32,000 nt of DNA from Candidatus Hermodarchaeota archaeon (GCA_048886185.1 JBHLKY010000005.1:30001-62000), one strand, 5' to 3'. Positions 8,519 through 16,907 are shown, counted from the stretch's first letter. The notes: a model not told the origin generated them from the letters alone. Numbers and translations are program-made.

Positions 8519-11128
8519 TTAAAGGTTTTTAAAAATACTTCTTACTATTTCATGATTAAATATAATTTTTTTATATTGATGGATTTCTTCATCTTTTCTC
8601 AAGCGATTAGTGACTTGACGTATAGTTTTCCAATTCGTTTCAATTACTTGCGTTAAACGTTCCTGATCGGTTTTGGAATCTTGAAAAAGAATTAAATCGA
8701 TAAATGAATCCATATTAATCGGTTTTAAATAACTACCCATGCAAACAGCTAAATTTGACGAAATTCCTAAGATTTCTGGGAAGTATAAATCATATACTAG
8801 GTAATTAGCTAGATTGAGAAGATAATCCATTCTTTTATCCAGAGACAACCTCCCACATAAATGAGCTTGATTAATAAACACGAGGTAACTGGCAAGAACC
8901 GAAAATTCCTTTTCAAAATCGTGGGGGTATTTAATGGGGATAAGTTTTGTATAATATTTATGGAGATAAACAGTTAAGTGACTGAAATTGAGAATGTATC
9001 TCTTTAAAAGATAATTAATAAGATCAGAGTTTAAAAGAATTAACATCGCAAAGAAATTGTATGACTTGTCTATCTCTAATATTGAAACATTGGTGCCAGG
9101 TATAATTTTTTCAGGTTTATAGGCTACTCTTAATCGATTACCAATGGCGGTATTTACAAGACGAGGTTCCCGAAAATAAGTTGTAAATCTCTCGTTTGTA
9201 GGATGAGGTTTTGACCATTGAAAATATTTAGGATTTAATGCATATTTTGAGACGCTTCGTCCTGAATGTAGATAGCAAATAGGATATTTTTGAGAATATT
9301 CTGAATTCAGATCTTTTTTTAATATTCTGTGATCAATACCATAGTCTCCCTTTACTACATTATCAACAACTAATCCTTGACTAACTGCTTTGTCCCACAA
9401 GTTGTTGTAGTAAATCATAAATCGCTTGTATTTCTTAAAAATACTAATATGAACTGTTGGTTCTGCATATATTTTTGGACGAGGATTGATAGTAACATTA
9501 TAATCAGGTTCAATTCGTTTATTTAAGTAAATTGAGCACATTTCTAGTGTAACATCAGTAAAAGCTGCTGATTCATCATCAATTCTCCAGATCACTGTCC
9601 TCTCTAACATGAACTTACGTAAAGATTCAAATTCTTCAACTCTAAGTATAGAAAATGGTACGATTAAACCTAATGTTCCGTTTTGTTTCAAAAGAGTAAT
9701 AGATCTTTCAATAAAAGCGCTAGCAGCATTTAAGCTGTATTTTTTTGGATTTTTACCAGAACATGATTTATAGACCAATTTTAATATCGATTTTTCCGTT
9801 TTAGATAAAATTGACCTTCCGTATGGAGGATTTCCTATTACAATATCAAATCCTCCATTAAGTAACACTTCTGGAAAAGCAATACCCCAATGGAACGAAA
9901 TGACTGAATCGATATCATTTCTTTTTAATTGTAAAGAATGTGCAGAACTATGTAATTGATTTTTAATCCAATTTTTGTAGAAAGTATCTACAAGAGAAAG
10001 AAGTGCTTTCTCGGCTTTTTGGATCGATTTTTGATGTACATTAGAGGGTAAAAGGTTTTTATTCGCCTCTTTTATATGAAAACTTGTTACAAGCCAATTT
10101 TCTGCTTCACCTTTATTAATGAATCTCTGATTCCCATAATGTGATTCTAAGTATGTGCTAATTCTTGAAATAGTTGTGGTATAATCTAGGGGATATTGAA
10201 TCCTTTCTTTACAAAGTCCAAATAGACTATTCCCAGTGTAGATATTCCGAAATAACCAAGAAGGAAGTAAACTAAGGTCAATAGGGGTTAAATTGAGAAT
10301 CCAAAATAATAATCTAAATTTAGCCACTGTTAAGCTACTTGGTGAAAGATCAATTCCATAAATACAGCTTTCAACAATTTTTTGAGGAAAAGAGTTTCCT
10401 TTAATCTGTTTTTTAAATAAGCGGTTAAAAAGACTTTCAGCAGTATAAACAAGAAAAGAACCCGTTCCACAACTCGTATCTAGGATTTTTACTTCCAGAG
10501 TTTTATTATTAAGATAATCAGGGTTTTTAGAAAGATGATAGTTGAGACAGCTGTCAGTTATTGCACGTATAATACGCCAAGGAGTAAAGTAAACGCCCTT
10601 ATGTTTACGTTTGGAAACTTTAGGAGTTAATCGAAAGAGATTTTCAAAATCATTGAGAATGTTTTCATAAAAATATGATAAGAATTCTGGGGAAATTTTG
10701 TTTTCATTTTTTGAAATGCTGGAAAAATCTTCGACTAGAGTCCATTCTTGCGCTTGAAGTAATTTCAAAAGACTATCCCAATCTTCTGATGATAATGAAT
10801 CCTTGAATTGAATCTCTTGATAGGATAATCTTAGTAAATCATTAAGGATTGGAGGCTTACCTTCTGGAAAAATGGTTAAATTATGGGAATCTTCTTGAAA
10901 AAGGATTTCATGAATAATTATTCTAATATTTCGTGGTTCAAATTCAAGGATTGGATTTTCATCGTTCCAATTATACCAAGGTTTGAGAATAATTAACCCT
11001 AAAAGCTTAATAAATAGATTTAAGGCCATTTCATGAATTTCATGAGGTGATAATCCATAGGATTTTCCTCTCTGAAGAAATTTCTCATAATATGGCTTTA
11101 AATCAGAATATAATCGGAACATAATCAA
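8519..11128 (-). CDS. N6-adenine DNA methyltransferase, Eco57I-like (type IIG-like architecture lacking a recognisable nuclease) (MTase-2)
   Basis: PEFLSYFYE, motif X GVYFTP, motif I ILDTSCGTGSFL, IYGIDL, FHWGIAFPEV...GGFDIVIGNPPY, FIERSITLLK, and TaqI_C-like LLNSDLINY. Confidence 0.85.
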   Translation of the reverse strand: MIMFRLYSDLKPYYEKFLQRGKSYGLSPHEIHEMALNLFIKLLGLIILKPWYNWNDENPILEFEPRNIRIIIHEILFQEDSHNLTIFPEGKPPILNDLLRLSYQEIQFKDSLSSEDWDSLLKLLQAQEWTLVEDFSSISKNENKISPEFLSYFYENILNDFENLFRLTPKVSKRKHKGVYFTPWRIIRAITDSCLNYHLSKNPDYLNNKTLEVKILDTSCGTGSFLVYTAESLFNRLFKKQIKGNSFPQKIVESCIYGIDLSPSSLTVAKFRLLFWILNLTPIDLSLLPSWLFRNIYTGNSLFGLCKERIQYPLDYTTTISRISTYLESHYGNQRFINKGEAENWLVTSFHIKEANKNLLPSNVHQKSIQKAEKALLSLVDTFYKNWIKNQLHSSAHSLQLKRNDIDSVISFHWGIAFPEVLLNGGFDIVIGNPPYGRSILSKTEKSILKLVYKSCSGKNPKKYSLNAASAFIERSITLLKQNGTLGLIVPFSILRVEEFESLRKFMLERTVIWRIDDESAAFTDVTLEMCSIYLNKRIEPDYNVTINPRPKIYAEPTVHISIFKKYKRFMIYYNNLWDKAVSQGLVVDNVVKGDYGIDHRILKKDLNSEYSQKYPICYLHSGRSVSKYALNPKYFQWSKPHPTNERFTTYFREPRLVNTAIGNRLRVAYKPEKIIPGTNVSILEIDKSYNFFAMLILLNSDLINYLLKRYILNFSHLTVYLHKYYTKLIPIKYPHDFEKEFSVLASYLVFINQAHLCGRLSLDKRMDYLLNLANYLVYDLYFPEILGISSNLAVCMGSYLKPINMDSFIDLILFQDSKTDQERLTQVIETNWKTIRQVTNRLRKDEEIHQYKKIIFNHEIVRSIFKNL

Positions 11129-11275: not shown

Positions 11276-13237
11276 ATGTTGGCGAAGGATCGATTTCCTA
11301 CTGAAATAATCGATGTTTGTTTACTATTATCAAACCATGGATTTCAAGCGTTTGTAGTTGGTGGATCTATACGAGACATCATCCAAGGAAATTTTTTACC
11401 ACAGGATTGGGATATCGCAACTGATGCAAAACCTTCTGAAGTAATAGGAGTCTTTAATAAGAGATTTCGTGTTATTCCAACTGGAATTAAGCATGGCACG
11501 GTTACCATTCTCTTTAATGGTCTATCAATAGAAATAACAACATTTAGAGTTGAGGGAGACTATATCGATGGTCGAAGACCACTTGAGGTTCATTTTGTTA
11601 AAAAAATTACTGACGATTTATCTCGTCGCGACCTCACAATCAATGCTATAGCATATGATCCCATTCATGACATTCTTTCAGATCCTTTCAACGGGATTAA
11701 AGACATTGAGGCAGGAATCATCAGGATGGTCGGGGATCCGAATAAACGCCTGAAAGAGGATGGATTACGCCTGATTCGAATTTTTCGATTTGTTTCGCAG
11801 TTAGGATTTAATATTGACCCCCCAACTTCAATTGCAGTTACTAATAATTTAACTATTTTTAATAAAGTTGCTAAGGAACGTATACACACAGAGTTTCAAA
11901 AATTATTACAGGGAGCTTTTTTTCAGAAATCTATTCTCTTATTAGAAGACTGTGGTCTGTTATATCACCTCATACCAGAATTTAATGATGCAGTTTTATC
12001 GAAAAATGTTTCTGAAATTAATTTGAACAGAATTGAGCTGACCTTGAAAATCGTGTCAAGCCTCCCTAGTTCTTCTTCTCAAAATCTTCGTTTTGCAACA
12101 TTGATTCACCAATTGTCTGCAATCCCATCAAAATCATCAATGATATTTCCTCCTTTCCAAGAAAATTTCATTCAAAAAATTCTAAAAAGCATGAAATGTT
12201 CTAATAAACAGATAACAACTGTATCTCACATTTTATCAATCCATTTATTGCGTCTTCCATATTCTATGCAAGAAGAAGATGATACAAAAGACTATTTAAT
12301 AAGAAAATTTCAGTATAAGATTCAACCTGAATATTTAACTGATTATTTAAATTTCTATTATGCGAAAGAGAACATTTTACGAAAAGAAAAACTCCTCACA
12401 GAACTTCTGAAAGACGATATAACGAAAAGAGCGAGAACCCAACAACCTATTGAATTGAAAGATCTTGCGCTAAATGGTGATGATATAATTCAGTTTTTTC
12501 TAATAAATAAAAAATACTCATCACAGCGAGAATTTATAGGTTTATGTCTTCAAATTATCCGGGAACGAGTGGAACTAAACCCCCAGATCAATCTAAAAGG
12601 TAAACTTTTTACCATTCTTGAAAATCTAAATAAAATCTTAACCCAGTGTACAACACAAATTACACGACGAGTTCATATTGTCTCAACGGATCATATCAGA
12701 AAGCTTTATTGTAATGGCGTCCCTAAATATGTTCAATGGGAAAATGAACACACTTATTTACTATCTAAATGGCTTATTCGTTGTCAACTTCGTAAGGATA
12801 CAAAATCGATAGTAATATTTGATGGAACTAATTTTAATTTTCCAACACATCCTACTCATCGAGAAAAACTATGTATTAGATTTAAACAGTACAATCCCAT
12901 ATTTATAAACACTAGTGCCTCTGAAGAAGAAGTTAAACTAAATTTAGAAACTAGAAATAAGGAGCCATCTTCTATAAAAAAGAGTGATGCTGATCTTAGT
13001 ATATTCAGACGTTATCAGGATTTACTTAGAACTTATCCAAAAGCTCTTAACATACTGGACGGTTATGACTTCATACAGCTATCAACACGTCACCCAGAAT
13101 TCTTATCCCTGATTCAAGATATCACAAAAAGAATTCTCAAAAATAAGAATCGTTTGGTAGTTATGAGTGGTAATGTCCTTACTGGAAAGACTTATACAGC
13201 TTATATTCTTCAAAAATATTTAGAGGGAAACAAATAA
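11276..13237 (+). CDS. cca: Class II tRNA nucleotidyltransferase (CCA-adding enzyme / poly(A) polymerase family) fused to a C-terminal P-loop kinase-like domain
   Basis: VVGGSIRD...DWDIAT, GIKHGTV, EITTFRVEGDYIDGRRP (flexible loop), DLSRRDLTINA, DPFNG and EDGLRLIR (EDxxR). The C-terminal ~190 aa carry STDHIR, IFDGTN, SDAD and GNVLTGKT. Confidence 0.88.
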   Translation: MLAKDRFPTEIIDVCLLLSNHGFQAFVVGGSIRDIIQGNFLPQDWDIATDAKPSEVIGVFNKRFRVIPTGIKHGTVTILFNGLSIEITTFRVEGDYIDGRRPLEVHFVKKITDDLSRRDLTINAIAYDPIHDILSDPFNGIKDIEAGIIRMVGDPNKRLKEDGLRLIRIFRFVSQLGFNIDPPTSIAVTNNLTIFNKVAKERIHTEFQKLLQGAFFQKSILLLEDCGLLYHLIPEFNDAVLSKNVSEINLNRIELTLKIVSSLPSSSSQNLRFATLIHQLSAIPSKSSMIFPPFQENFIQKILKSMKCSNKQITTVSHILSIHLLRLPYSMQEEDDTKDYLIRKFQYKIQPEYLTDYLNFYYAKENILRKEKLLTELLKDDITKRARTQQPIELKDLALNGDDIIQFFLINKKYSSQREFIGLCLQIIRERVELNPQINLKGKLFTILENLNKILTQCTTQITRRVHIVSTDHIRKLYCNGVPKYVQWENEHTYLLSKWLIRCQLRKDTKSIVIFDGTNFNFPTHPTHREKLCIRFKQYNPIFINTSASEEEVKLNLETRNKEPSSIKKSDADLSIFRRYQDLLRTYPKALNILDGYDFIQLSTRHPEFLSLIQDITKRILKNKNRLVVMSGNVLTGKTYTAYILQKYLEGNK

Positions 13238-13288: not shown

Positions 13289-14998
13289 ATGAAAAAAACT
13301 AAAGGCCAGTTCTTTACCCCAGGATTCTTGGTAAAGGCAATCTTAGATAAAGTTACTACTTTTTTTCCAAAAGAGTATGAATCAAGACAGATAACGATTT
13401 TGGATCCAGCTATAGGAAAAGGTGTATTCTTATCAACCTTAATTCCTATAATTTCATCAAAGTTTCACTCGGTTAAACTTTATGGCTTAGATATAGATTC
13501 CTCTATAATCAAAATTGCCAATAAGAATTTGCTTCCCTTAGCTAAAGAATTTAATTATGAAATGGAAGTAAAGCTTGGAGATTTTTTCCTTGAATTTCCT
13601 TTGGACTTTCCAAAAGAGTTTGATGTAATTATTGGGAATCCACCTCACAACGCAAAATATTCTCATTCTGAATGGGAGGAAATAAGAGAAAATTGTTTTT
13701 TTGGTCAAATTTCTAATGTACGGTCTGAAAGTTCTGTTTTCTTCACTTTAAAATCATTAAATCTTCTTAAGCCATGTGGTCTCCTCTGTTTTTTGTTACC
13801 TAAACCAATTATTTATTCAAAAAGATGGGTTGTCTTCAGGGAAATACTATTAACCGATTATACACTTATTGGAGTCTTTGATCTCGGAAATCAATTTACT
13901 GGTCAGCTACAGGAGCAATGTGCATTAATTATCCAAAAAAGGACTCCAATCTCTATAGGGCATCAATATGTAACAGGAATTTGGAACTCCAACCTAAAAA
14001 AATTCCTAAAAGTTGACAGAATCTTTAATAAAGATGCAATAGCTTTAGATAATCTTTTGGTGGGAGTGAGCTCTGCTGAGATGGAGCTGATTCGGCGTTT
14101 TCATAGGAAAAATTATATTGATCTAGATGTTAACGCTTTTCGGGGACTAAGCAGCCGTTATCGAAGCATAGAAGGAGAAATTCCTTTGATCGAAAAAAGT
14201 AATTTTGCTTCTGGTTTTTTATTTCCGACACAGCACTATATAAGTCCAAATACTCCCCAAAAGCTTCTACTTAGACAAAAAGTCCCAAAAATTATTGCAC
14301 AACGAATAATCTCATATCGCACAAAACCAAAATTTAGATTAGATGTAAAAACCTGGTTTGATTCGAAAGGAGCTATTCTCACACATGAAACTGTGATCAA
14401 TATTATTCCAAATTATTCCCAACAAATAATCTCATATTGTGCTATTGCTGGTTTACTAGAGTCATCATTCGTTGAATGGTGGCTTAAATCTACAGTCTAT
14501 ACTCAAGAATTTGTAACAAGTAAAGATTTTGATAAAGCATACATAAATTCAATAAGAATACCGAAAATTGTAGGCCCAATAAATAAGAATTACAGGTTGA
14601 AGCTTTCAAATTTACTTCAAAAGAAGCAGTACGAAGAGATACTGAATGAAGTAAAAAACCAATCGAATATTGATAAATTTTTTACTTTAGGAGAGATATA
14701 TGAATGCTATCAAACTACAGGTCATAAACTAAAGAAGAAGTTATTAGAATCGATCCAGGCTGAAAAGCCTTTCAACGAGAAATTTTCGGAATTTAGAAAG
14801 TGTAAATTATATTATAATCGTCTATTAAAAAGATTTTATTCTCCTTCTGAGGAATCTCATCTTCAAGATCAATGTGAGGAGATATTGGATTTATTCTCAG
14901 AACTTAAAATATTGAAGGAGAATATGAATGAAATTGTTATTTCACTTTATGAAATCAATTCTGAAGAGCGAGAACTTATCAAAAAAGATTTAATCTGA
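13289..14998 (+). CDS. N6-adenine DNA methyltransferase, M.TaqI-like, with NPPH catalytic motif (MTase-3)
   Basis: GQFFTP, ILDPAIGKGVF, LYGLDID, FDVIIGNPPH, LLKPCGLLCFLLP, and C-terminal PKIIAQRI and LLES TRD-type motifs. Confidence 0.8.
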   Translation: MKKTKGQFFTPGFLVKAILDKVTTFFPKEYESRQITILDPAIGKGVFLSTLIPIISSKFHSVKLYGLDIDSSIIKIANKNLLPLAKEFNYEMEVKLGDFFLEFPLDFPKEFDVIIGNPPHNAKYSHSEWEEIRENCFFGQISNVRSESSVFFTLKSLNLLKPCGLLCFLLPKPIIYSKRWVVFREILLTDYTLIGVFDLGNQFTGQLQEQCALIIQKRTPISIGHQYVTGIWNSNLKKFLKVDRIFNKDAIALDNLLVGVSSAEMELIRRFHRKNYIDLDVNAFRGLSSRYRSIEGEIPLIEKSNFASGFLFPTQHYISPNTPQKLLLRQKVPKIIAQRIISYRTKPKFRLDVKTWFDSKGAILTHETVINIIPNYSQQIISYCAIAGLLESSFVEWWLKSTVYTQEFVTSKDFDKAYINSIRIPKIVGPINKNYRLKLSNLLQKKQYEEILNEVKNQSNIDKFFTLGEIYECYQTTGHKLKKKLLESIQAEKPFNEKFSEFRKCKLYYNRLLKRFYSPSEESHLQDQCEEILDLFSELKILKENMNEIVISLYEINSEERELIKKDLI

Positions 14999-16022: not shown

Positions 16023-16907
16023 TCAAATATGCCGAGCATCTACTCTTTCAGGTTTTTCCATCTTGACTTTGGACAAGAAACTTGGTTTTTTATCTTCCAT
16101 TGGCTTGATACAATCAATTAATTTTGCCAGTTTAGATTTTCCTTCCACATTACAACATACATCTCCAGAATAGTTAAGTGTTTCTCGGAAATTACGAAGT
16201 ATTGTTGAAGGAAATTCCAATTTTGTTTTTGCTAGGAGTTCAAATATTTTTATGCCTATTGAAAACTCAACAGCTGGATCCAGCTCAGGAGTATCAAAAA
16301 TGGAATCTTCTATTTCAACGTGGCAATTTGAGTTGAATATACTCGAGATATCTTGGATATCTTTCAGATCAAAGTCATCAGGATGGATGGCATTTGCTTT
16401 TAATGCAATCTGGAGGCCAGGAGGACATATTAAAGTCTCAGAGTAACTTGAGGGAAGTTCATCAAACTTAAAAGTCCAACACATTCTGATGCCATCCACA
16501 AAGACTTCTACCTTTTGAAAATCGGCCTCTTCAATATTGTTCATTCGTCCATGTTCAAGTTCTTCTATTTCTGAAGACGAAAGTTCACGATTTGGTTTGT
16601 AATACTCTCTCCTAGGTGTTCTAGACATATTTTGCATCATATTAAACGGTCTATTGGGGTAGAAACCATTTTGCTTAAGAATGGTTTTAATTGGTTTATC
16701 TGCTTTCTTAGGGATAAAAAACTCAAGATCACTCATTTTTCTGTAATCTAACCTTCCTCCAATCAAATGATAGATCGCACCACCCCCCCATAAAAAACAA
16801 GGAATTGATTCGTCTTTACAACTTTGTAGAATTTTATAGCCACTTCTCATCAAGGTATCATTGTGTACTTTATTAGAATTGTCCATGATTTTGCCTTCAT
16901 TGTACAT
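16023..16907 (-). CDS. Uncharacterised nucleotidyltransferase-fold protein (NTase-B), distant paralogue of 15063..15977
   Basis: LWGGGAIYH...MSDLEF, KVEVFVD and ALKANA...KDIQDI align in order with the NTase-A motifs. Confidence 0.6.
   Translation of the reverse strand: MYNEGKIMDNSNKVHNDTLMRSGYKILQSCKDESIPCFLWGGGAIYHLIGGRLDYRKMSDLEFFIPKKADKPIKTILKQNGFYPNRPFNMMQNMSRTPRREYYKPNRELSSSEIEELEHGRMNNIEEADFQKVEVFVDGIRMCWTFKFDELPSSYSETLICPPGLQIALKANAIHPDDFDLKDIQDISSIFNSNCHVEIEDSIFDTPELDPAVEFSIGIKIFELLAKTKLEFPSTILRNFRETLNYSGDVCCNVEGKSKLAKLIDCIKPMEDKKPSFLSKVKMEKPERVDARHI

Follow-up and report, generated by a model that had tools for sequence, protein, structure and literature searches.

Why would a CCA-adding enzyme end in the nucleotide-binding motif with which P-loop kinases ordinarily open? 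The question is raised by a gene in a 32,000-nucleotide stretch of DNA from Candidatus Hermodarchaeota archaeon (GCA_048886185.1 JBHLKY010000005.1:30001-62000), referred to here as the window, whose product joins a class II CCA-adding module to a C-terminal domain in which the Walker A motif comes last. We conclude that the C-terminal domain (residues 460-653) is almost certainly a circularly permuted P-loop kinase of the AAA_33 group, fused to the CCA enzyme. The gene, whose start methionine is common to the aligned orthologs of the 653-amino-acid (aa) fusion, is made up as follows.

11276..13237, plus strand: whole gene, class II CCA-adding enzyme and predicted permuted kinase in one fusion; 653 aa, stop codon included (open reading frame [ORF] listing, translation)
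11276..12595, plus strand: class II CCA-adding (tRNA nucleotidyltransferase) module, residues 1-440 (Pfam, NCBIfam, motifs)
12596..12652, plus strand: long helix connecting the CCA tail to the kinase domain, residues 441-459 (secondary structure of the full-length model)
12653..13234, plus strand: predicted circularly permuted P-loop kinase domain, residues 460-653 (AlphaFold, VIA-align, hhalign, split co-fold)

The elements of residues 460-653 run in the order beta2, beta3, beta4/lid, beta5, helix and beta1-Walker A-alpha1. The Walker A motif, GNVLTGKT (K638, T639), covers residues 632-639 (13169-13192), 15 residues from the C-terminus; it is the only one in the kinase domain, and none lies ahead of the STDHIRK strand. 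An earlier, sequence-only reading of this DNA had located the kinase motifs, and translation confirmed VHIVSTDHIRK (12671-12703), GNVLTGKT and the others at the positions given there. Along the chain, the elements are as follows.

12671..12703, plus strand: beta2 and the phosphoacceptor motif VHIVSTDHIRK, residues 466-476 (D472, predicted general base; R475); invariant, aligned to the D..R of AAA_33 kinases
12722..12757, plus strand: P-x-Y-x-x-W-E-x-x-H-T-Y segment (P483, Y485 and E489 invariant); common to the P..Y...E motif of canonical relatives
12809..12832, plus strand: beta3, the Walker-B-like IVIFDGTN, residues 512-519 (D516, T518, N519); invariant, aligned to FDATN of canonical kinases, 6PF2K and Clostridium thermocellum Pnk (CthPnk)
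12833..12862, plus strand: lineage-specific loop FNFPTHPTHR, residues 520-529; a template gap in hhalign, with the lowest model pLDDT at domain residues 77-79
12896..12964, plus strand: beta4 (PIFINTS, residues 541-547) and lid helix; aligned to the canonical R..R lid and to R116/R120 of CthPnk
12977..13015, plus strand: KKSDAD...RY motif, residues 568-580 (S570, A572 and R579 invariant); common to the SDAD..VY motif of canonical relatives
13070..13144, plus strand: beta5 (FIQLST, residues 599-604) and helix; from secondary structure, and by hhalign matched to the template's last helix
13151..13225, plus strand: beta1, Walker A and alpha1 at the C-terminus; from translation, invariance, hhalign (template 79-107) and co-fold packing

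A search with residues 440-653 retrieved 34 proteins, almost all 650-680 aa long and with the same two-part architecture. This architecture, for which a search of other genomes had been proposed from the sequence, thus recurs in many independent assemblies, single-contig genomes among them; the named orthologs carry source labels of Hodarchaeota/Hodarchaeales, Heimdallarchaeota, Promethearchaeota or Thorarchaeota metagenome-assembled genomes. In an alignment of 18 orthologs, 43-69% identical to the query, residues T471, D472, R475, K476, P483, Y485, E489, D516, T518 and N519 are invariant, as are R529, N556, R560, S570, A572, R579 and the Walker A stretch G632-N-V-L-x-G-K638-T639. The lid helix (EEEVKLNLETRNKE, residues 550-563) keeps the second arginine of the RxxxR motif as the invariant R560, and the first position is the invariant asparagine N556. 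P483, Y485 and E489 were matched by hhalign to P69, Y71 and E75, which are invariant in the alignment of the canonical family, and the segment that holds them probably forms part of the acceptor pocket. The helix after beta5 matches the C-terminal helix of canonical kinases; in the fusion protein it leads into beta1.

The loop that follows the Walker-B strand (N-x-P-x-H-P-x-H-R) includes a 4-residue insertion relative to canonical kinases; P523, H525 and R529 are invariant and P526 and H528 nearly so. Invariant cysteine and histidine residues also occur elsewhere in the kinase domain (C458, C503 and H492). The loop together with C458, H492 and C503 might constitute a metal site or a substrate-specific element.

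The sequence-only reading had proposed that a PNK/AAA_33/PSTK-type kinase is present here in permuted order and fused to the CCA-adding enzyme, and this is supported by profile alignment, structural modeling and co-folding. Comparison of the domain profile with 1.84 billion representative proteins returned 43 proteins at E <= 0.001. The matches other than orthologs and fragments were mostly proteins of ~170-215 aa, in which query positions 22-145 aligned to residues 45-170 and a second stretch aligned in about half of the cases; all seven of those scanned with Pfam were AAA_33 proteins (E 1e-17 to 5e-28) with the ordinary P-loop-first order. The hhalign comparison used an alignment of 30 canonical, Pfam-verified AAA_33 proteins as its template, and its E-values are those of a one-template comparison. 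In native order the domain gave two out-of-order pieces, with Q6-161 aligned to T108-249 (probability 99.4, E 1.3e-21) and Q162-190 aligned to T79-107 (probability 95.7, E 9.9e-9), the second abutting the first exactly in the template. With the last ~30 columns moved to the front, as had been suggested for the sequence, the two were replaced by one full-length AAA_33 alignment of 166 columns (probability 99.8, E 7.7e-30), and the score rose from 140 to 191. Likewise, hmmsearch found two out-of-order domains in the native sequence and one after re-permutation. Alignments to 6PF2K chains in PDB were also noncolinear, with query 166-206 falling on chain residues 4-44 (the P-loop unit) and query 57-108 on residues 94-143 (Walker B and beta4).

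An AlphaFold2 model of the domain profile construct (domain numbering 1-209) was compact, with a pLDDT of 86.2 and a pTM of 0.86; the terminal helix-strand-helix reached a pLDDT of 90-96, and strands were modeled at domain residues 22-26, 68-72, 97-102, 154-158 and 183-188. When the model was compared by VIA-align with 48,161 PDB representatives, the top 40 matches were all P-loop nucleotide-binding proteins, almost all of them kinases, including PSTK (3a4l, Z 8.3), Kti12 (6qp0, Z 8.1), 2rhm (Z 7.8), 6PF2K (Z 7.7), CthPnk (4gp6, Z 7.4) and T4 Pnk (1ly1, Z 6.9). In nearly all of them, model residues 19-180 were superimposed on the target from about residue 25-30 onward, after the P-loop helix. 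The weight of this comparison, made with a predicted structure, lies in the uniformity of the matches and in their systematic offset.

Whether the displaced segment is predicted to return to its usual place was addressed by splitting the domain (residues 1-177 versus 178-209) and co-folding the two parts. The ipSAE was 0.82 in three runs, compared with 0.02 for the best of three controls; of 80 solved complexes, 58 score this high, as do 2 of 110 mismatched pairs. The runs had at least 98% of their contacts in common, with a partner pLDDT of at least 84. The tightest contacts joined the terminal strand (182-187) to the Walker-B strand (68-71) and to beta4 (95-100), so that, as expected for a permuted kinase, the terminal strand and helix are predicted to pack into the sheet between those two strands. 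The interface includes D472, D516-T518, R529, N556/L557 and R560. In the model, the terminal strand is therefore predicted to occupy the canonical central beta1 position of a 2-3-1-4-5 sheet, with invariant residues surrounding the P-loop. As Walker A, although last in the chain, is inserted at the usual sheet center, the active-site geometry is predicted to be that of an ordinary kinase.

Several observations weigh against assigning the domain in this way. A Foldseek search of PDB with the model gave no match at E <= 0.001 (the best kinase row was 2rhm, probability 0.75), a poor result that is expected where an aligner dependent on sequence order meets a permuted chain. Pfam AAA_33 did not match this protein's own domain at E <= 10 and matched only 9 of the 18 orthologs (best E, 9.6e-6), which is likewise to be expected if a permutation breaks the match in two; no significant hit to the C-terminal domain came from Pfam, NCBIfam or PADLOC. 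Z scores near 8 are by themselves in a middling range for such a model, and the outcome of the co-folding may owe something to P-loop kinase structures that the model has memorized.

Among P-loop NTPases, the known precedent for a natural circular permutation is that of the circularly permuted GTPases (RsgA/YjeQ and YlqF/Lsg1; PMC1262696). These GTPases are of another class, with the order G4-G5-G1-G2-G3 and a different cut point, and provide an analogy only. No GTPase family appeared in the Pfam and NCBIfam scans of the domain, in which the G motifs were not inspected singly, and all strong matches were to kinases. Neither the fusion nor a permuted kinase of the Pnk/PSTK/AAA_33 type was found described in the literature searched, which included a recent preprint on CCA-adding enzymes of this lineage (Cassidy et al. 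2026, bioRxiv 10.64898/2026.05.29.728689). What is new is thus the connectivity of the fold, itself a known one for kinases, and its fusion to a CCA enzyme; the domain provides a clean case of a nucleotide-binding unit that has switched domain ends while remaining at its usual position in the sheet.

Two metagenomic proteins outside the CCA fusion, P0070 (L021:1593-2228) and P0065 (L022:1826-6433), also have the kinase body first and a GPPLSGKS P-loop last, and each gave two noncolinear matches by hhalign. P0070 is a free-standing protein of 211 aa. P0065, with 1535 aa, also contains HAD_PNKP-type phosphatase and MIB_HERC2 domains; it additionally carries about ten repeats of an acidic stretch followed by LELLG, which resemble processing sites. 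In a tree of re-permuted and canonical sequences the Asgard fusion clade was well supported (96/93). The same tree grouped this clade weakly (38/77), and on long branches, with the two other permuted proteins, so that the permutation may have arisen once or more than once.

Is the permuted domain likely to be an active enzyme, and if so, on what would it act? Residues were mapped by chaining the alignment of the domain to its canonical relatives with that of the canonical relatives to CthPnk. In the CthPnk Michaelis complex, Asp38 acts as the general base, Arg41 orients the base and positions the acceptor, and Thr80 anchors the first phosphodiester together with Arg41 (PMC3902929). In the lid, Arg120 contacts the gamma-phosphate and Arg116 stacks on the nucleobase (PMC3902929). 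The fusion has K638/T639 at the positions of Lys21/Ser22, D472 at Asp38, R475 at Arg41, T518 at Thr80 and R560 at Arg120, and counterparts of all residues essential in CthPnk are invariant in the 18 orthologs. All 11 invariant positions of the canonical relatives are kept as well. With the catalytic residues and these 11 positions retained, the kinase domain looks catalytically competent, and its acceptor is probably the same as that of its canonical relatives.

Those relatives, the free-standing AAA_33 (PF13671) proteins of ~170-215 aa from metagenomes, are the closest in sequence (E down to 5e-8 among the 1.84 billion proteins). They have the G..GTGK[ST], [ST]D..RK, P.Y...E, FD[AG]TN, R-lid and SDAD..Y motifs in common with the fused domain but place the P-loop first and are not fused to a CCA enzyme. 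Their clusters are named only "predicted kinase" or "hypothetical protein." The best solved matches of this canonical family were PSTK (E 6.5e-20) and the kinase domain of CthPnk (E 5.6e-16) and its best NCBIfam matches were selen_PSTK and bacter_Pnkp, both far under the cut-off; on account of these matches, the family is placed among RNA-acting kinases. Protein-language-model neighbors were all of AAA_33 type, with scores of <0.9 that make them leads only. A six-frame scan of the source genome with both profiles found only the fusion and no close canonical parent of its kinase domain. A canonical AAA_33 kinase of 182 aa is encoded on contig C30 and is a distant relative of the permuted domain. 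Its gene overlaps one for a 326-aa protein with an aminoglycoside-phosphotransferase (APH)-like HGDLxxxN motif (L015:366-1875, minus strand, for the pair), and the pairing of such a kinase with a ~330-aa protein recurs in a sister Heimdallarchaeia family (L011, L013).

The fused domain would, on the reading that we prefer, be an active NTP-dependent kinase whose acceptor is a hydroxyl on RNA or tRNA, with a 5'-OH end as the likeliest candidate. That substrate would be held by the tRNA-binding CCA module, and one polypeptide would both service the 3' end, by CCA synthesis or repair, and phosphorylate an RNA end. Taken as a whole, a two-module tRNA enzyme of this kind, combining CCA addition with an RNA-end kinase, is the best explanation and a modestly probable one; considered by itself, the identification of the fused domain as an RNA-end kinase is close to evenly poised, leaning slightly to the doubtful side. 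An RNA or tRNA hydroxyl is favored by the Pnk/PSTK-type acceptor triad and by the stable fusion to a tRNA enzyme, and the PNKP-type HAD phosphatase domains of P0065 would count toward an affinity of the RNA type.

Comparison with known systems shows both similarities and differences. The domain resembles CthPnk and T4 Pnk in its P-loop kinase fold and in the invariant counterparts of Lys21/Ser22, Asp38, Arg41, Thr80 and Arg120, and Pnk kinases are, likewise, typically fused to another RNA-end-processing module. It differs from them in that Walker A comes last and the first lid arginine is an asparagine, and in its fusion partner, a CCA-adding enzyme rather than a phosphoesterase or ligase, with no associated ligase gene. 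CCA-adding enzymes of the E. coli type combine class II CCA addition with an HD phosphohydrolase, a second RNA-end-healing chemistry in one polypeptide. Their NCBIfam model (NF008137) matches the N-terminal module of the fusion weakly; here, however, the HD position is degenerate, and the added module is a kinase and not a phosphatase or phosphodiesterase.

Other observations count against an RNA-end kinase. N556, at the position of CthPnk Arg116, is an invariant asparagine and the sole departure from the CthPnk pattern. The canonical relatives are uncharacterized, so the acceptor of the fused kinase, as read from sequence similarity, need not be RNA. In established structures the tail of a CCA enzyme, to which the kinase is attached here, lies close to the tRNA elbow and away from the acceptor end. 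Nothing usable on the placement of the kinase relative to the CCA active site came from the full-length model (pTM 0.73). The source genome (4.84 Mb, 96% complete) encodes RtcB (E 5e-160), which ligates 5'-OH ends. No Tpt1 was found in this genome, and the search for a 5'-phosphate-dependent RNA ligase gave only a sub-threshold RNA_ligase match in a 575-aa frame. A 5'-kinase would therefore have no obvious sealing partner, and a heal-and-seal pathway is not evident.

Should the domain prove to be a 5'-kinase, diversion of 5'-OH RNAs from RtcB to 5'-phosphate-dependent decay, or repair of tRNA 5' ends, is as plausible as heal-and-seal. A more specific version of the RNA-end kinase reading, tentative and on balance rather doubtful, is a two-ended tRNA surveillance enzyme whose CCA module rebuilds or tags the 3' end while the kinase phosphorylates 5'-OH ends. 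These ends would be generated by the splicing endonuclease or by ribotoxins and would belong to tRNA exons, tRNA halves and excised introns. Because the resident ligase RtcB needs a 5'-OH, such RNAs, once phosphorylated, would be bound for 5'-phosphate-dependent decay or for a different route of repair. Such an enzyme would be an archaeal counterpart of the roles of the Trl1 and Clp1 kinases in eukaryotic tRNA intron turnover. More generally, an RNA 5'-kinase would mean that tRNA in archaea otherwise reliant on RtcB can be repaired or degraded by a new route.

Two other explanations remain live rivals. The first, which we hold to be unlikely, is that the domain does not phosphorylate RNA and is an NTP-binding regulator or NTPase, similar to the tRNA-dependent ATPase Kti12, or an ATP sensor that tunes CCA addition or the binding and release of tRNA. 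PSTK and Kti12 are the best structural matches of the model, with Kti12 ranking second, and several orthologs gave weak KTI12 matches in Pfam; PSTK pairs its kinase with a separate tRNA-binding module. Both proteins differ from the fusion in their canonical order of elements and in a C-terminal tRNA-binding domain unrelated to CCA enzymes. The tethering of the domain to the tRNA-binding tail of the CCA enzyme, the invariant asparagine in place of the first lid arginine and the lack of a 5'-phosphate-dependent ligase partner in the genome searches would also suit a regulator. However, the acceptor-site residues D472, R475 and T518 are invariant, although a pure sensor would not need them, and the complete retention of the invariant positions of canonical kinases likewise argues for catalysis.

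The second, which we consider quite unlikely, is that the domain phosphorylates a small molecule or nucleotide, the same substrate as that of the free-standing AAA_33 relatives, and that the fusion provides co-regulation or a local supply of substrate in place of RNA-end chemistry. Gluconate, shikimate and adenosine phosphosulfate (APS) kinases and 6PF2K are among the structural matches, the closest canonical relatives are unnamed "predicted kinases," and the P..Y...E and SDAD motifs common to the fusion and these relatives suggest one acceptor for both. Gene neighborhoods are also in line with a small-molecule substrate: distant AAA_33 genes are paired with the APH-like kinase, one close canonical relative adjoins a HAD hydrolase gene, and no RNA-repair context was found in the neighborhoods of the canonical relatives, P0070 and P0065. 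It is harder to reconcile with the best solved and curated matches of the relatives, which are the RNA-acting PSTK and Pnkp, and with the combination of D-x-x-R and D-x-T-N, a polynucleotide kinase/PSTK signature. Furthermore, the kinase is fused to an enzyme dedicated to tRNA binding, and this fusion has been stably kept throughout the clade.

It is very improbable that the protein is a PSTK analogue that phosphorylates seryl-tRNA held by the CCA module, in a selenocysteine or related tRNA-dependent pathway. PSTK ranks first among the structural matches and among the solved relatives of the canonical family, and a kinase domain with a separate tRNA-binding module is found in both proteins, but the pathway is not recognizable in the source genome: the best match to TIGR03574 scored 39 bits (versus 290.5) and lay in an unrelated 182-aa kinase, SepSecS was matched only partially (~85-105 of 389 family positions, 16-23 bits), and ARAGORN called no tRNA-Sec. 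Identity with PSTK itself was rejected, as NCBIfam selen_PSTK did not match the domain and the genome is without a proper PSTK, SepSecS or tRNA-Sec. More improbable still is an artifact, either a chance Walker A motif or a misassembled or frameshifted join of two genes in place of a permuted kinase, since the lack of significant Pfam and Foldseek matches is outweighed by an uninterrupted architecture in 34 proteins from independent assemblies, an invariant Walker A and a terminal segment that has its own hhalign match and is predicted to pack in the center of the sheet.

Residues 1-440 are, by their motifs and family matches, a complete class II CCA-adding enzyme of the bacterial/eukaryotic type. 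Pfam identified PolyA_pol (PF01743; E 9.5e-35, 120 bits versus a cut-off of 23) and PolyA_pol_RNAbd (PF12627; E 7.6e-13), and NCBIfam NF009814 matched with E 4.3e-78 and 263 bits, below its equivalog cut-off of 290. The motifs GGSIRD (29-34), DWD (44-46), RRD (117-119) and EDGLRLIR (161-168) are invariant among orthologs, and the canonical flexible loop is present as EGDYIDGRRP (93-102). At the degenerate HD position the sequence is LIHQLS (276-281), of which H278-Q279 is invariant among orthologs; Pfam found no HD domain in the fusion protein, and the His-Asp dyad of the E. coli-type multifunctional enzyme is absent.

Among 201 sampled genomes of the phylum, the permuted domain was confined to the genus-level group of the source (Heimdallarchaeia; labeled Hodarchaeales in public records), occurring in 7 of 9 genomes and in the source's own. 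The class I archaeal CCA enzyme, present in 173 of the 201 Asgard genomes overall, was detected neither in the source genome nor in any of the 10 genomes of its genus-level group. Hodarchaeales have been reported to encode class II CCA enzymes only, frequently in two paralogs, A and B (Cassidy et al. 2026, bioRxiv 10.64898/2026.05.29.728689), and our genome searches agree in finding only class II enzymes in the group. The source genome has two class II genes, the fusion and a 392-aa paralog without a kinase domain on contig C12 (L002:808-1986, minus strand), which is probably one of the A/B paralogs of the preprint. The paralog is 35% identical to the N-terminal part of the fusion and keeps GGAVRD, DFD, RRD and EDGTRIIR, but its flexible loop is shortened and degenerate, and it scores 168 bits against NF009814, compared with 263 for the fusion. 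A sample taken at class level included 21 genomes of the group, 16 of which had both a 650-700-aa and a 373-414-aa class II gene. Because the flexible loop of the fused paralog is canonical and a class I enzyme is absent, the fusion is probably the housekeeping CCA-adding enzyme of the lineage.

One recombinant Hodarchaeum class II enzyme was shown to add the complete CCA, the text not stating whether it was the long or the short paralog (10.64898/2026.05.29.728689). In the preprint the termini are regarded as variable and are trimmed off, and nowhere does its text use the words kinase, P-loop or fusion (10.64898/2026.05.29.728689). The proteins belong to the same family as the one described here, and the extra kinase domain seems to have escaped notice there. 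What is joined in the fusion is a kinase of the RNA-end-healing type and the maker of every tRNA 3' end. The lineage concerned has exchanged the archaeal CCA enzyme for one of bacterial type; it is placed among the closest relatives of eukaryotes and is central to the debate on how eukaryotes arose.

ARAGORN predicted 32 tRNA genes in the source genome, of which at least 20 lack an encoded 3' CCA and 23 are predicted to contain introns. Three calls with introns were labeled tRNA-Pyl (anticodon CTA) and are probably miscalls. Several amino acids were without a tRNA call, and many tRNA genes were likely missed or are multiply interrupted.

The fusion gene is flanked by two genes for N6-adenine methyltransferase-like proteins. 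The first, at 8519-11128 on the minus strand, encodes 869 aa with Eco57I, N6_Mtase and TaqI_C matches; the second, at 13289-14998 on the plus strand, lies 52 bp downstream on the same strand as the fusion and encodes 569 aa (N6_Mtase/Eco57I). PADLOC assigned both only to generic type II/IIG systems. The fusion and the two methyltransferase genes were adjacent in all six same-genus genomes examined, even where the fusion was only 45-50% identical, and only the three closer genomes kept genes further downstream. Restriction-modification genes do not usually show synteny this stable, and the flanking enzymes could be RNA methyltransferases.

Four public sequencing runs contain the full sequence; all are sediment metagenomes, possibly the source of this DNA, and no RNA run was listed as containing it. 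Further downstream in the window, a 293-aa ORF at 16023-16907 on the minus strand had a weak match to NTP_transf_5, an uncharacterized nucleotidyltransferase family (E 3e-6, under the cut-off), and is kept in the three closer genomes only.

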